Shown: piece by piece, positions 1,458 to 63,182 of the stretch | Numbering within the stretch: the stretch's first letter is position 1 | Layout of the letters: the number at the start of each line of letters is the position of its first letter | Source: Stegostoma tigrinum | Lineage: Eukaryota | DNA length: 64,000 nucleotides | Direction: 5' to 3' | NCBI RefSeq assembly: GCF_030684315.1 | Contig: NC_081391.1 | Location: 20,172,629-20,236,628 of the forward strand | Position numbers and translations under genes: made by a program | Notes under the pieces: model-generated | What the model saw: only the letters and a program-made list of their open reading frames with translations | Databases searched by the model: none | What the model was told of the DNA's origin: nothing

Positions 1458-3599
1458 TCAGCTGAGTGTGAGCCTGTCAAACAGGTACTCTCCCATGCCA
1501 TTGGCAGGGGCTCCCAGTCTCTTCAGGTTGGTGATGTGATCTCCCAGCTTCTTGATCATCTTCACTTGCTCATCCAAGTAGTGCCTCTCCAGGAAGTCAC
1601 ACAGCTGGAAGAAAAAAAAATGTTAAGCATTTTCCTTCGCATTTCAAAGCTCAGCCATCCTCTAGTCCAGAGGAGACAGATGCAAATTCACTAAATCACA
1701 GGAAGTGTACAACAGCATCATAGATACACTGTTTATGGCACCATGGAATGGAGACATGAACAGGGCTATTCAAAGTGGACACCATTCGATTCGGCTCAGA
1801 TAATCCTTCCAATTTAACCCAAAACAGAAGTGCTTCAGCCTGAAAAACTCACATGAGGGTCCATGTGGCCAGAGGAGAGTTTGTGCAGATCCAGCAGACT
1901 CTGGTTCACATCCTTCTCCATCTGCAGAGCTCTCTGCATTGCCTCCAGGCCACTGCCCCATTCATCCTGCTCTGGCTTCTGGCGGGAGAAGACAGACAGT
2001 CATTAGTGAGGTTAGAAGGTCCAAGACTCGTACAAAGGCAAGAAAATGAAGACATGTGGTAATCTGTGCCAAATCCAAACCAAGGATTAAAAAATAATTC
2101 ACAATTCACAGAAGATCATGGAGACCATTATCAGACATTTGATCCATCATTGTAGACTGAAGGATCAGACCTTGAATTGTAGTATGAAGTCATTTTATTC
2201 AGATGGCTCTACAACAGCGTATCATAATTCCAACTGACATTTCAGGTTGAAAGCCCTTTCATTCTGAGCATTCAGATTTGATGATCTTTAGAAGGAAGGG
2301 TTTTCACAAAACCAACTCACTCCAAGCTGAGATTTTCTATCAAGACACTTCACTCATCTCAACATATACTGGAGAGTTGAGAACAGCAAGGTCATTGTAC
2401 AATTAGGAAGCTGCAGAAAATGTCATTTACTTCACAATAAATAGAATCCAACCTTGATGTCCTGCAGGAGGACTCGGCCTCCACGTTTATTCTGGAATAC
2501 CATCAGTTTCTCAGCATGTTCCCGCTCCTCATGGGACTGCTCCTTGAAGAACTCAGCAAAGTGATGCAGAGCAACATCATCCTGGTCAAAGTACAAGAAC
2601 TGTGGAAAGAAAAGCAAAGTGGAAATGTTTCTCAGTCACCCAAGAGACCTTCAAATCAGAAAGTAACCCAGTCACCATCATGAATCATCTAAGTTAGGGA
2701 GGAGAAATAGAGGAATGTTTGCAGGACAAAAGCAGAAAATCATCCCCATGGATTATGGCCCAGATAGCAGGCATTAGGTTTCCCTTTCCATAAGGGAAGG
2801 GAAGCCAACTGCAACCACTGGCCTGACAGTGCCCTATGAAGTCAGTTAGTCACAGCCAGGCATCCCTATTGCTCAGCGCTGGGAGCTGGTCAAGATTTGA
2901 CCAACTGAGGCAGGATGTTGCCTTGCTGACTAAGCGAGCCAGAAGTCTGTCAGCTACTTCATTACCTACATCACCCAACTGAACAATTCCAATTTTGAGT
3001 CTCTTCTGCATGGATGCCCAAGTAGAATGTCACACTTGGCATGCAGATTAAGAAAATCTAATTGCAACACTTAGCAATCCTCACATTCAATAGCTAATAG
3101 TCTTTTGCTCCTCAAAGAGAGAGTGAGCACCTGATTAATTAGGCTACTTTTTACAAGGCAGAAGTAGATAGGAGAAAGTTTCCACAAGGAGAGTGATTTT
3201 TATACATTCTTCAGCCAACAAAATAAAGTTAAAGTTAGCAGCAAAGCCAGCTTACCCCTCTGTAGCTAAGACCATAAACTGTCCAGAAGGACAATGAGGG
3301 GAGGGCACTCAACAGGGAGATTCAATTTAAGAAACACCTACATTTAAGTGTTCCAGTATTAAGTGTGTTAGCTAGATTCAGTCAGGGAAGCAGGAGACTC
3401 CAGATACATTCTGCAGGTAGTTCATTGAACCAGAAAACACCAAAGCCTCAGTACAATTATAATCACAGCCTTAAAATTACAAGTAATCAAGCCTCACCAT
3501 GGAGAGGTAAACATAGGAGGAACAGAGCTCCAGGTTGATCTGCTTGTTAACAGCATCCTCACAGTCCTTGTGGTAGTTCTGACACACTTGGGAAGCCAT
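1458..3599 (-). CDS. Ferritin subunit F1 (heavy-chain-B / middle-subunit-like), intact, 173 aa, 4 exons
   Basis: Exons 3498-3599, 2453-2599, 1853-1978, 1458-1604, all GT-AG and phase 0. Translation [179 protein letters not shown] at 1374-1379. Confidence 0.95.
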
Positions 3600-3666
3600 C
3601 TTCACTATTCCTGCTCACTATCACCTAGACAACTCTAGCACTAATCCTTTGTACTACAATCTCTGG

Positions 3667-60215: not shown

Positions 60216-63182
60216 TCAGCTGAGTGTGAGCTTGTCAAGCAGGTACTCTCCCATGCCATTGTCAGGGGCTCCCAGTCTCTTCAGGTTGGTGATGTGATCT
60301 CCCAGCTTCTTGATCATCTTCACTTGCTCATCCAGGTAGTGCCTCTCCAGGAAGTCACACAGCTGGAACAGTCAGGTGCAGAGCTGGTTAGTGTGGAGGG
60401 GAACCGACAATTTGAATTGAAAGTGCCTTCCCCTCCCCCAATTGATTCAGGCAAGTCGTGATACAAACACTTCTAGCTGAAGAGAAGTGAAATTTACTAA
60501 GTGGCAAGTCACTATTTTTAAATTGCACAAATTAAGCTTCAGATCCATGGAATAACCACTTGCTCTTGGAGGGGGTGGGGTGAGGAAGAATTGATTGAAG
60601 CCAATTTTTCATTCATTCATGTCCTAAAGCCACAGCCCCAAGCCCAGTGATTTTCAAAAATGCAGGAGGAGCACACATTCTCCATTTCTGTCTGAACAGC
60701 TCTACATATGGGGCTTCCAATTGGTTTTGTTCAGGGTCAGCATAAAAAGAACCAAGCTAAAAGCAAAGCAAACATTCCCTTGACAGTTCAGCAAGCCAGA
60801 TTTTTCCTTATCAGCAAGAAAACTCACTTTAACACAGGGTCTAGTGTCTGGAGAGACTGTACACTCGGACATGATGAGACCCCATGGTGTTAGGGTAGGA
60901 CATGAAAGAGAAGACCGTCACCTATCATTTAGCCGCCGTCCAGATAAAGGGAACGTTCAGGACGTCAACTTAGCTGTCATGTGACCCTCGGGACAGATGG
61001 TTTGTTTTAAGGGAAACAGTGAAGCCTGCACTCAGCACAGAATGGAAAGGAGACCTCTCTAAAAGACAGGTTTCTATGGAGTGAGAGCTGAAGGCTCGAG
61101 GGAACCCATGGAATTCCTGGCTGCAGAGGGTTGTTGGGGGTCAGGTAATTCAAGCATAAAGGCTGAGAACGTTAAATTCAGAAATCCTTCACTTTCCAGC
61201 CTTATCCCCTTGAATGAGGAGGATTCAGATCAACCATGATCGGAATGGCTAAAGAAACTTGATGGGCTGAGTGGCCTATTAAAGTGAAGGGTAGGTGAAG
61301 CAGCATTCTCAGGTAAAAGAGATTGATGTAAAGGCTGAACAGCCAAGTAGGGGAGATAGAAGGACACTCAGTCATTTTAACAAAATGTCCATCACATGGG
61401 TGAAACAGGTAGAAAAGAACTCACATGAGGGTCCGTGTGGCCAGAGGCTAGTTTGTGCAGATCCAGCAGACTCTGGTTCACATCCTTCTCCATCTGCAGA
61501 GCTTTCTGCATTGCCTCCAGACCATTGCCCCACTCATCCTGCTCTGGCTTCTGGAGGGAAGCAAAAAAAGGAGATGCTTCACCCATGTGAATAATGAAGT
61601 GCAATACAGTGAGATGACACAGCAACTAGGAACTAGTATGCCATATAGCATTACACCAGCTGAATTCAAGCATCAAATCCATGTCTAGTTCAGGTAGCTG
61701 TAACGTAGGCGGCTTCACCAACCTTGATGTCCTGCAGGAGGACTCGACCGCCACGTTTATTCTGGAATGCCATCAGTCTCTCAGCGTGTTCCCGTTCCTC
61801 ATGGGACTGCTCCTTGAAGAACTCAGCAAAGTGATGCAGGGCAACGTCATCCCGGTCAAAGTAAGAGAACTGTGGGGAGAAGAGGAGAATGCAACAGAAT
61901 CAGGCAAGCTCCAGATGTCATGCGGTGAGAAATGCCACAGAGCCTGTATGGCTTCTTTTCAGCTTCAATAAGATTGTGTACAAATGGCCTAGACAAGGGA
62001 AGAACAGGTTGAGGCAGTAGAGTTCAGAACTAGAGATCATAATTTATCAAGGTGAAGGTCATTTTTTTGATGACCTTTGGTGAGAAGCTTGGATTTTGAT
62101 CCTGCATTGTCTTCTCCAACTGTGACTGCCATTTGAGTGTAGGGGAAAGGTGGCACAACCCCTCAGAAGGGAGGGAATTGGCATGGGAGCTAGTGTTGCA
62201 ACTTGCACTAAACACCTCAGTAGCCATTACTTCCCAGATCTCATGAGAAGGAACACAACCCCAACCCCCATGCTAGAAACAGGAATTTTATCCTCAACCC
62301 AAGTGAGGTCAGAGACCCTGTCACCAAAAGCCCTTCGTCACTGAATGCCAGTTGAGACAAAAATCCATTGACTTCAGTAACATAATCATCATGGATGATG
62401 AAGTGCAAAGCTTGATGAACACAGCAGGCCAAGCAGAATCTCAGGAGCACAAAAGCTGATGTTTCAGGCCTAGACCCTTCATCAGGGCCCAAGATGTCAG
62501 CTGTGGAGCACCTAAGATGCTGCTTGGCCTGCTGTGTTCGTCCAGCTTCACACTTCATCACCTTGGATTCTCCAGCATCTGCAGTTCCCATTATCTCTGA
62601 CTATCATGGATGAACCTAGCATGAAGGCCAACACAACAGGAATATGCTCATTTAGATACAGGTAGAAAAGGGCTCAGTTGGTTTCACTAATGAAACACCC
62701 AATTAGCTTTAAAATCAATTCTAAGAAAGTTTGTTCAGGTTTATGCATTATGAAAGTCATCCACAGGAAAACATAAGGAATCTTGGATTTAGTTCCAACA
62801 TAAACCACTTCAGAATAAAACCAATGTTACAGAATATAAAGCAAATCAGTTAACAAGGCAACCAAGAATGCTTAAATCACTCAAGTGGATGAGTTTGAAA
62901 GAAAGAGGCAAAACATTCAAAAGCTAATTTGTTGACTTAACATATAGTTTTAAAAAGTTAACTGAAACACATGGGGCATCAACATGACTGACATATTGCC
63001 CAGCCCAGACAACCTCAGTGGGGCAGAGTGGAATGAGAGGCAGGAAAAAAAAAAATGACCTTCAAAATCACTAGGCTCACCATGGAGAGATAAACATAGG
63101 AGGAATAGAGCTCCAGGTTGATCTGCTTGTTAACAGCATCCTCACAGTCCTTGTGGTAGTTCTGACACACTTGGGAGGCCAT
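60216..63182 (-). CDS. Ferritin subunit F10 (tandem copy of F3), intact, 173 aa
   Basis: Exons 63081-63182, 61723-61869, 61425-61550, 60216-60362 with canonical splice sites. Carries [10 protein letters not shown] and ends [10 protein letters not shown]. Confidence 0.93.

Follow-up and report, generated by a model that had tools for sequence, protein, structure and literature searches.

Duplication, decay and probable exon-anchored gene conversion in a tandem ferritin gene array of the shark Stegostoma tigrinum

Ferritin loci and nested duplications

The 64,000-nucleotide stretch of Stegostoma tigrinum DNA analyzed here (the window) contained ten ferritin loci between positions 1458 and 63182, all on the minus strand, as demonstrated via exon-by-exon BLAST and translation in agreement with the preliminary description of this DNA. 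The exon matches, with E-values of 1e-18 to 1e-74, far exceeded chance. Five copies (A, C, E, H, and J) were intact, with four exons, GT-AG introns, and an open frame of 173 codons, and five were broken in the ways already described: one by a splice mutation, others by indels or heavy decay, and one reduced to a relic. The one-strand arrangement held for the ten loci but not for an inverted exon-3 fragment on the plus strand (8316-8382) and its twins at 35492-35546 and 52932-52995, also on the plus strand. The presence of three introns in every full locus ruled out a retrocopy origin.

Copy A (1458..3599, minus strand; exons at 3498-3599, 2453-2599, 1853-1978, and 1458-1604) was intact and had the conserved Tyr26 changed to Cys. 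Copy B (9277..11093, minus) was a heavily decayed pseudogene with indels in exon 2, both splice sites of this exon gone, and a 2-nt deletion at the start of exon 4. Copy C (15681..18795, minus) was intact with an Arg60Trp change and had the long type of 3' UTR, the first AATAAA lying 527 nt past the stop. Copy D (22838..25003, minus), a pseudogene with a divergent promoter, carried a 1-nt insertion in exon 2, with a stop at codon 72, and a 7-nt deletion where exon 3 begins; a net in-frame rescue was ruled out by the stop between the two indels. Copy E (29613..31930, minus) was intact with Arg60Trp and Tyr29Ser changes. Copy F (36490..36948, minus) consisted of a B-type exon 4 (36490-36634) and the 3' ~310 nt of intron 3, lacked exons 1-3 and the promoter, and was adjoined by a retroelement piece. 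Copy G (41112..43345, minus) kept an open frame, equal to the RefSeq Stegostoma tigrinum protein P0011 at 171 of 173 residues, and had AT as the intron-3 donor. The remaining copies were twins of the first three: H (46095..48228, minus; intact) of A, I (53889..55647, minus; heavily decayed) of B, and J (60216..63182, minus; intact) of C.

These twins lay in the second unit of a tandem repeat with a 44.6-kb period (44637..64000), 98.7% identical to positions 1-19613, with 250 substitutions in 19,339 aligned columns and 32 internal indels. The window therefore comprised seven distinct loci and not ten independent ones. An older duplication block (1846..15835), carrying A, B, and the 3' end of C, matched 30174-41266 with E, F, and the 3' end of G at 87-92% identity, which shows nested duplications of 44.6 kb and about 28 kb. 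A retroelement remnant at 12949..14005 (minus strand), presumably Penelope-like, gave a weak GIY-YIG match (E 8e-4, below the Pfam cut-off) and had further copies near 38568-39467 and 57502-58548. Five of six stretches with LINE-like frames gave no Pfam match, and Tandem Repeats Finder reported only two microsatellites in the window.

The 44.6-kb repeat might be an assembly artefact in which two haplotypes were placed in tandem, so that three of the ten loci would be alleles. The high identity of the two units, the occurrence of identical RefSeq proteins on a 26.9-Mb chromosome and a 267-kb scaffold, and the fact that no junction-spanning read was seen speak for such an error. We nevertheless consider it improbable, as 250 substitutions and 32 indels per 19 kb are high for shark alleles, the diagnostic sites in sequencing run X1 were a mix of left-unit, right-unit, and neither-unit letters, and run X5 contained a third C/J-type intron variant. 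An artefact of this kind would be compatible with the explanation preferred below.

Intron mosaics and the likeness of exons

Intron homology was scored via local alignment against 100 shuffles; global identities were inflated by gaps and were discarded. Among copies A, B, C, D, E, and G, 40 of 45 intron comparisons revealed no real homology (38 fell in the range of the 100 shuffles and two just above it), whereas the other five aligned strongly and formed a mosaic pattern. Copy E combined A-type introns 1-2 with G-type introns 2-3, and copy G had its own intron 1, an A/E-type intron 2, an E-type intron 3, and a C-type 3' flank. A switch point within intron 2 was marked by a run of 10 sites with H equal to G among 122 sites (permutation p 1e-4).

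The exons gave a different picture. Synonymous divergence (dS) was 0.06-0.14 in all 13 non-twin pairs, and only 4-10 of about 60 four-fold codons differed between copies whose introns failed to align. The likeness extended to the dead copies. Pseudogene B was identical to intact H over 96 bases of exon 4 (nt 4-99) as against 15/102, 28/137, and 13/118 differences in exons 1-3; B and F differed at 1/145 positions of exon 4 and at 77/851 positions of the flanks (Fisher p 8e-5); and exon 4 of pseudogene D differed from that of E at 1 of 147 nt. Synonymous sites of the twins (6/224 changed) evolved no slower than non-exonic DNA (233/17,790), which argues against silent-site constraint.

Exon-anchored gene conversion is the likely cause of exons so alike between introns so unlike. 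The exons would be the sole long homology common to all copies, and because of that unequal crossing-over and conversion would resolve inside them. We regard it as very probable that such exon-limited exchange shuffles introns between genes and homogenizes the coding sequence even in dead copies. Patchwork identity and homogenized tracts, in pseudogenes as well, are hallmarks of concerted evolution and were found here.

The preliminary description had attributed the array to birth-and-death evolution. Birth via segmental duplication and gene death were borne out by repeated duplication and the presence of pseudogenes, but independent divergence without exchange, in which silent exon sites diverge along with the introns, was not observed. 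A pure birth-and-death course (duplication, independent divergence under purifying selection, and death) would account for five of ten loci broken at different stages, for nested duplications at 98.7% and 87-92% identity, and for dN/dS below 1. It is at odds with low silent divergence of exons where introns do not align, with the intron mosaics and the switch point inside an intron, and with long stretches of pseudogene exons identical to live copies; moreover, no sign of silent-site constraint was detected. We therefore find it quite improbable.

In the clustered protocadherins and chorion genes, exons are homogenized while introns and spacers diverge. The ferritin array resembles these clusters in exon-limited homogenization and differs from them in that exon crossovers shuffle whole introns and blocks of 28-45 kb are duplicated in addition.

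Encoded proteins, promoters, and transcripts

The Pfam ferritin family PF00210 was matched above the cut-off by two of four exons. A model of P0138, a close Stegostoma relative five residues away from copy H, displayed the ferritin fold of a four-helix bundle and a short E helix (pLDDT 89; TM 0.97 against frog M ferritin). All six open-frame copies kept the ferroxidase ligands E24, E59, H62, E104, and Q138, which correspond to frog E23, E58, H61, E103, and Q137, as well as the transit residues E58/E137 and the three-fold pore residues D128/E131; the cavity carboxylates E58, E61, and E64 were also present (residue roles as tabulated in PMC10114856). The predicted function is that of the family, a 24-mer cage oxidizing and storing iron. 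No signal peptide was found in the array ferritins. Light (L) chains such as FTL are defined by the loss of ferroxidase ligands, and an L-chain identity was ruled out by retention of all of them.

The top match in both sequence and fold was frog M (H') ferritin (PDB 3KA4/1MFR; about 75% identity), identical in the ferroxidase, transit, and three-fold-pore residues. The array proteins differed from it by Met at the Asp140 ligand position, a site with Asp in frog M and otherwise a small residue in M subunits, by Leu at the four-fold pore position His169, and by being three residues shorter. With vertebrate FTH1, including shark fth1a (P0198/P0163), the array shared four exons, the full ferroxidase centre, and the helix bundle. 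It was set apart by a separate clade, many copies in place of one, an IRE that was not found, and the replacements Ala19 to Asp, Arg23 to Lys, Ala/Ser144 to Met, and His173 to Leu; identity to mammalian FTH1 was about 68-70% and not 90% or more.

Three of these replacements marked the array clade among 229 rows (98 array and 131 others). Asp15 was present in 78/98 array rows and 0/131 others, Lys19 in 84/98 and 0/131 (Arg in 126/131), and Met141 in 95/98 and 1/131, including all six window copies. The NCOA4 cleft, Ala19/Asn22/Arg23 in human, read Asp15, Asn18, and Lys19 in 6/6 copies, so that only the equivalent of Asn22 was conserved. In human FTH1 the A19Y and R23A substitutions abolish NCOA4 binding, whereas R23L retains binding in cells (PMC11076521). 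This R23L result, the conserved Asn, and the fact that lysine retains the aliphatic portion of the arginine side chain weigh against a reading of lost NCOA4 binding. Tentatively, Asp15/Lys19 would make ferritinophagy less efficient and Met141 would change how iron passes through the ferroxidase centre, favoring a slowly mobilized store.

The copies had a common type of promoter (3600..3800 in copy A, minus strand; start site inferred), with a TATA-like box 72-75 nt above the ATG, a TGATGTCA-like site at -114, reverse CCAAT boxes near -119, -146, and -175/-192, and a 5' leader of roughly 45 nt counted from the inferred start. No IRE was found with Rfam, either at the gathering threshold (0 hits) or at E<=10 (nine weak unrelated hits). 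A pattern scan of 9/9 upstream regions, run without positive-control DNA from a conventional ferritin gene of a shark, likewise gave none.

In run X5, from the same species, contigs joined exons at the predicted introns, and it is from these joints that RNA was inferred. H-type joints 46241>46488 (12 contigs) and 47230>48127 (13 contigs) corresponded to GT-AG introns 3 and 1, J-type joints 61550>61723 (17 contigs) and 60362>61425 (two contigs) to GT-AG introns 2 and 3, and B/I-type joints 54033>54375 and 54492>55611 were seen in one contig each. The shorter sides were only 21-29 nt long, so these joints are not assignable to exact window copies. In X15, a single 693-nt contig spanned the complete set of four exons, with more than 120 nt on each side; run X1 had 0/15 of the listed joints. 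The ferritin family is thus transcribed and spliced, and expression, whose lack would have refuted the preliminary description, was supported at the family level. Summed word depths in X5 reached 4-6.6 x 10^5 at exon bins, contig depth being no measure of expression; nor is missing cover, as in X21 of the same study, where most exon bins were uncovered. The summed depth in X1 was higher for exon bins than for intron-only bins, which is no measure of copy number. The runs considered here exclude the two with raw reads, both of them bisulfite libraries.

The published shark cluster and possible roles of the array

The array itself is already published and annotated. Sahm et al. 2024 (bioRxiv 10.1101/2024.09.09.611499) reported a shark 'FTL/FTH1' expansion, and Yang et al. 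2026 in PNAS (PMC13214024) a shark-wide 'FTH1b' cluster with Stegostoma tigrinum among the species. The accessible parts of both describe tandem, intron-containing genes with truncated members across sharks, as seen here, and do not discuss the loss of the IRE, gene conversion, repeats of higher order, or changes at the NCOA4 site. In the literature searched, the IRE absence, the CCAAT/TATA promoter, the Asp/Lys change at the NCOA4 site, and Met beside the ferroxidase centre were unreported; bioRxiv 10.1101/2025.02.19.638963 and 10.1101/2025.06.08.657570 had 0 mentions of ferritin, and PMC13007054 mentioned ferritin nanoparticles only.

Many such genes are already modelled in RefSeq on one and the same zebra-shark chromosome, and clusters of 127, 69, and 138 members were found; the suggested expansion beyond the window edges was thereby corroborated. 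No flanking genes of other families lay in the window. The array fell within a shark-only clade (SH-aLRT 99-100), which in one tree united the window with 31 rows that represent 11 shark species (SH-aLRT 99); these were quick tree searches run without bootstrap and without teleost M or mammalian L sequences. The expansion is hence lineage-restricted as proposed, although it is shark-wide and published rather than an unexpected feature of this lineage. Grouping of the array with teleost fth1b was rejected (p-AU 0.003; one fth1b row, quick tree), and the sharks' separate fth1a grouped with other FTH1, which argues against orthology of the array to fth1a. Placements beside FTH1 (p-AU 0.49), with frog/reptile H-M (0.66), and with a single H-like gene on the same chromosome (0.51) were neither established nor rejected.

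We favor, as rather probable, the view that the ten loci form a 62-kb slice of this published cluster, in which copies arise by segmental duplication, decay, and have their exons kept alike by conversion, and which would serve as an IRE-free bulk iron store, probably one deposited in eggs. The choice of tissue is based on the ovary-specific expression of the large cluster in the Greenland shark (Sahm et al. 2024). Such a cluster would provide a single ferritin type in very large quantity; there is about an even chance that its many copies, together with a short CCAAT/TATA promoter and a leader lacking an IRE, yield high expression controlled at transcription only. From the sequence, the absence of an IRE, the promoter, the Asp/Lys change, and the Met tentatively suggest an iron-independent, slowly recycled store. 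More speculative is the notion that one paralogue became an amplified, conversion-maintained egg-iron system of dozens to hundreds of IRE-less genes, whose cage would escape both IRP control and NCOA4 ferritinophagy and have its ferroxidase site retuned. The yolk ferritin of snails, likewise IRE-less, is a maternal store that is secreted and imported; the array ferritins, having no signal peptide, would be made in the storing cell.

Yang et al. 2026 connected the expansion with ferritinophagy via NCOA4, with ferroptosis, and with longevity, and called for functional work. The cluster would then act in somatic tissue as an iron buffer that guards against lipid peroxidation and ferroptosis and is emptied through NCOA4 ferritinophagy, and the intact ferroxidase ligands agree with it, as do, in the accessible text of that paper, the transcription of part of the Greenland shark copies in fin and blood and the richness of sharks in polyunsaturated lipids. 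Without an IRE the genes could not respond quickly to cellular iron, two residues of the NCOA4 cleft are altered clade-wide while shark fth1a keeps both, expression was reported as ovary-specific (bioRxiv 10.1101/2024.09.09.611499), and the expansion is common to short-lived sharks (PMC13214024), so that we judge the somatic buffer unlikely. The fin and blood transcription and the ferritin, subunit unstated, among the liver-specific assemblies of a dogfish study (PMC5568229) also weigh against an egg store.

The intact copies were 90-98% alike, differing at 3-14 residues. Purifying selection was significant for H-C (p 0.006) and C-G (p 0.0002), with dN/dS of 0.20-0.35 between the main lineages. 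It fell short of significance in pairs that include E (p 0.12, 0.18) and in comparisons of the twins (p 0.11). Position 60 was Arg, Trp, or Gln (Trp in 16/98 and Gln in 12/98 array rows). Diversification into functionally distinct subunits tuning mixed 24-mers, to which these residue differences, the variable position 60, and at least five promoter/intron/3' UTR lineages might point, is very improbable, since the metal ligands are identical in all copies, position 60 is a repeatedly hit CpG codon, the exons are undergoing homogenization, and dN/dS exceeds 1 in no pair. Between the dosage and diversification offered by the preliminary description, dosage therefore fits better; the mixed 24-mers it envisaged are plausible but would combine near-identical subunits.

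While the discovery of the array is not news, the window adds direct tests of the claim of Yang et al. 2026. If these ferritins lack an IRE and their NCOA4 cleft is changed, the ferritinophagy pathway would be the one to which they are least suited, and egg provisioning becomes the leading alternative. Should the egg-iron system prove true, the shark ferritin expansion would reflect the provisioning of large, yolk-rich eggs rather than a link with ferroptosis or longevity. Exon-limited conversion also makes coding-based copy ages, dS, and counts of lineage-specific 'expansion' unreliable in this ferritin family, and intron types are better markers than the coding sequence for the history of shark ferritin copies.

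Ten ferritin loci in duplicated blocks

Six-frame motif scanning and exon-wise self-BLAST of the window located ten ferritin loci on the minus strand, designated A to J from the left, with 4.9–11.4 kb between successive locus starts. Loci A (1458–3599), C (15681–18795), E (29613–31930), H (46095–48228) and J (60216–63182) are intact, each with 173 codons and three phase-0 GT-AG introns, as judged by splice sites and translations. The frame of G (41112–43345) is open, but its intron 3 donor is AT, and retention of this intron would lead to a stop at 128 residues. D (22838–25003) carries a 1-nt insertion and a 7-nt deletion, B (9277–11093) and I (53889–55647) are both heavily decayed, and F (36490–36634) is an exon-4 relic that lost exons 1–3 beside a retroelement piece; exon 1 is kept in the other nine loci. 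The tally of the preliminary description, ten loci with five intact and the rest at stages of decay, was borne out by exon-wise BLAST, splice sites and translations. The plus strand has three isolated, inverted fragments of exon 3 (8316–8382, 35492–35546 and 52932–52995), approximately 900 nt downstream of the B/F/I-type stops; these could give antisense ferritin sequence in read-through transcripts.

Self-alignment of the window showed that 1–19613 is repeated at 44637–64000, with 250 differences in 19,339 aligned columns plus 32 internal indels. Given this low divergence, A, B and C have recent twins in H, I and J; one unit of the repeat measures about 44.6 kb and comprises seven loci. An older block lies within the unit (1846–15835 versus 30174–41266, 87–92% match), and through this duplication E, F and the end of G derive from A, B and the end of C. 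At unit-diagnostic sites, sequencing run X1 carried left-unit letters at some, right-unit letters at others, and at some the letters of neither, a mixture which fits several paralogous units. That the 44.6-kb repeat reflects haplotypes and not a true duplication is a less likely alternative.

The remnant of a retroelement, weakly matching GIY-YIG (12949–14005, 38568–39467 and 57502–58548), was copied together with the blocks, and an inverted retroelement piece (36968–37380) borders the F deletion. Frames at 5245–5910, 21309–21800, 49863–50528 and 26842–27228, which gave no Pfam match, resemble C-terminal remnants of LINE reverse transcriptases; judged by its high depth in run X1, 49.9–50.5 kb is a common repeat. 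Intron 1 of C (17879–18043) and of J (62396–62560) contains an imperfect palindrome of 165 nt, whose high depth in each of the three runs from the same species suggests a common small repeat.

Homogenisation confined to exons

Among 45 intron comparisons of A, B, C, D, E and G, only five gave a strong alignment; the remaining 40 had no real homology (38 inside the range of 100 shuffles, two just above it). The five form a mosaic (A–E introns 1 and 2, A–G intron 2, E–G introns 2 and 3), and C and G have the 3' flank in common. Across 13 non-twin pairs of open-frame copies dS was 0.06–0.14, and identity drops to background about 10–20 nt beyond the exon edges. Selection on silent sites does not account for the low dS, since the twin copies changed at 6 of 224 silent sites versus 233 of 17,790 sites outside exons.

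Signs of exchange were visible in individual copies. Intron 2 of G is E-like for three quarters of its length and H-like for the last ~130 nt (a run of 10 among 122 sites, p 1e-4). Pseudogene B equals H across nt 4–99 of exon 4, whereas exons 1–3 differ at 15/102, 28/137 and 13/118 positions. B and F, both dead, differ at 1 of 145 exon positions against 77 of 851 in the flanks (p 8e-5), and exon 4 of D and E at 1 of 147. The exons are the only long homology in all copies and very probably anchor both conversion and unequal crossing-over. Purifying selection was detected between the main lineages (H–C, p 0.006; C–G, p 0.0002) and was not significant for pairs with E or for twin pairs.

Altogether, these results show that the family combines block birth and death with concerted evolution of exons. 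The birth-and-death evolution proposed in the preliminary description holds for the duplication and decay of blocks, but independent divergence of exons does not agree with the unalignable introns, the dS values and the signs of exchange. RefSeq shark models P0002, P0003, P0194 and P0195 (261–291 residues) have exons 2–3 doubled, and the introns of all loci are phase 0; these models are either real intragenic duplications via exon crossovers or gene-model fusions.

A shark clade of ferritins with altered residues

Exons 2 and 3 scored above the Pfam cut-off for ferritin; exon 1 and exon 4, each taken alone, fell below it. The best solved relatives are frog M ferritins, and the ferritin fold is predicted for the database protein P0138, which differs from copy H at five residues (pLDDT 89, TM 0.97 to 3KA4). 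The neighbouring sequences in the database come from sharks. When G is read through its junction, 171 of its 173 residues agree with Stegostoma tigrinum P0011, both differences being at the junction, and the nearest proteins to A, C, H and J among the matches listed come from the same species, which makes the zebra shark the likely host. Several sharks have many array-type models on single chromosomes; the clusters number 127, 69 and 138 members, with 15 of each listed. P0219, a ferritin labelled as bacterial, shares 82% identity with a ferritin of a chimaera and probably represents contamination from a vertebrate host.

In quick trees, built without mammalian L or teleost M sequences, the window copies fell within a shark-only clade (31 of 67 rows, SH-aLRT 99) and its carpet-shark subclade (SH-aLRT 97), apart from the fth1a of sharks and from the one H-like gene located on the same chromosomes. 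A joint clade with teleost fth1b was rejected (p-AU 0.003; one fth1b row, quick tree). Tested against FTH1, frog M and L, the array failed features of each, and it is best classed as a shark array clade. The single conventional H-like ferritin sharing a chromosome with the array (P0261 in horn shark, P0275 in bamboo shark; Ala19/Arg23/Ala144) has relatives in rays; this gene is a candidate parent of the array.

Following the frog M numbering and residue roles of PMC10114856, all six open-frame copies retain E23, E58, H61, E103, Q137, the transit residues E57/E136 and the pore residues D127/E130, but have Met for D140 and Leu for H169. The proteins would work like M/H-type ferritin. A survey of 223 of 306 proteins (150–200 residues) and the six copies, grouped by nearest reference, found Met141 in 95/98 array rows and 1/131 others, Asp15 in 78/98 and 0/131, and Lys19 in 84/98 and 0/131; the rows are related, so the counts are not independent events. 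Codon 60 (C, E, G, B, I) is a CpG arginine codon repeatedly mutated, with Trp in 16 and Gln in 12 of the 98 array rows versus Arg in 126 of the 131 other ferritins, so constraint there is relaxed in the array.

Positions 15 and 19 align with Ala19 and Arg23 of human FTH1. Binding of NCOA4 is reported in PMC11076521 to be lost with A19Y, N22A or R23A and to be partly retained with R23L. As Asn22 is conserved in the array and Lys is a mild change, weaker ferritinophagy of the array ferritins is a prediction only.

Transcription, regulation and the published record

The upstream scan covered eight regions, I being left out as the twin of B. In each of the eight, a TATA-like box lies 72–75 nt above the ATG, and the nearest ~215 nt contain two to four CCAAT boxes in reverse orientation, against an average over the window, counting either strand, of 0.7 per 250 nt; a TGATGTCA site stands at −114 in six, and G has a variant. 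A leader of ~45 nt is implied, with an inferred start site. A 5' iron-responsive element (IRE) is a usual feature of vertebrate ferritin mRNAs, both H and L. Rfam found none in the window, and neither did a pattern search extending from 600 nt above to 700 nt below each of the nine loci that keep exon 1, run with no canonical shark gene as control. The C/G/J types lack an early AATAAA, and their 3' UTR of 0.5–0.9 kb (14754–15680, 40188–41111 and 59287–60215) holds one CPE-like U-rich motif; the A/D/E/H types have AATAAA 58–79 nt past the stop.

Four runs were compared with 45000–63400, which covers three of the ten loci. Contigs of run X5, which has the same species label as the best-matching runs and is of unrecorded kind, join 46241>46488 (12 contigs), 47230>48127 (13), 61550>61723 (17) and 60362>61425 (2), all predicted GT-AG introns. 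The shorter sides are 21–29 nt, so the joints demonstrate splicing within the family but cannot be assigned to these particular copies. The preliminary description took absence of expression from every copy as grounds for rejection; at the family level, the spliced contigs contradict such absence. X5 also contains H-type and A-type intron letters and the long C/J-type 3' flank. Two B/I-type joints (54033>54375 and 54492>55611, one contig each), one of which links a cryptic donor within exon 1 to exon 3, indicate that pseudogene types are apparently transcribed; decayed copies appear to be spliced without exon 2. In run X15, from another organism, one 693-nt contig spans all four exons, and in run X1 no such joint was seen among the 15 listed (628 more lie beyond these).

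Sahm et al. 2024 (bioRxiv 10.1101/2024.09.09.611499) give 155 FTL and 179 FTH1 copies for the Greenland shark, with three clusters syntenic with white shark, the largest expressed ovary-specifically. Yang et al. 2026 (PMC13214024), cited by PMC13701976, describe 59 'FTH1b' copies in tandem, elevated numbers among sharks at large and the presence of truncated copies; they also report that some copies are transcribed in blood and fin, and put forward a hypothesis based on ferritinophagy and ferroptosis. Their main text does not contain the terms 'gene conversion', 'ovary', 'iron-responsive' or 'pseudogene'. A dogfish liver set also includes a ferritin (PMC5568229). The window feature is real and belongs to this published shark-wide cluster, so the array is already known. 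Our search found no report that describes, for the ferritins of sharks, a lost IRE, gene conversion or an altered NCOA4 site, which is weak evidence of absence, as most subscription journals lay outside it.

What the present analysis adds is the homogenisation limited to exons, together with the findings on the IRE and the NCOA4 site. That the array is an amplified, conversion-maintained egg-iron system, IRE-less, escaping IRP and NCOA4 and with a retuned ferroxidase, and not one of ferroptosis or longevity, is a tentative reading that we consider rather unlikely. The IRE and NCOA4-site findings make the published longevity hypothesis testable against one of egg provisioning.
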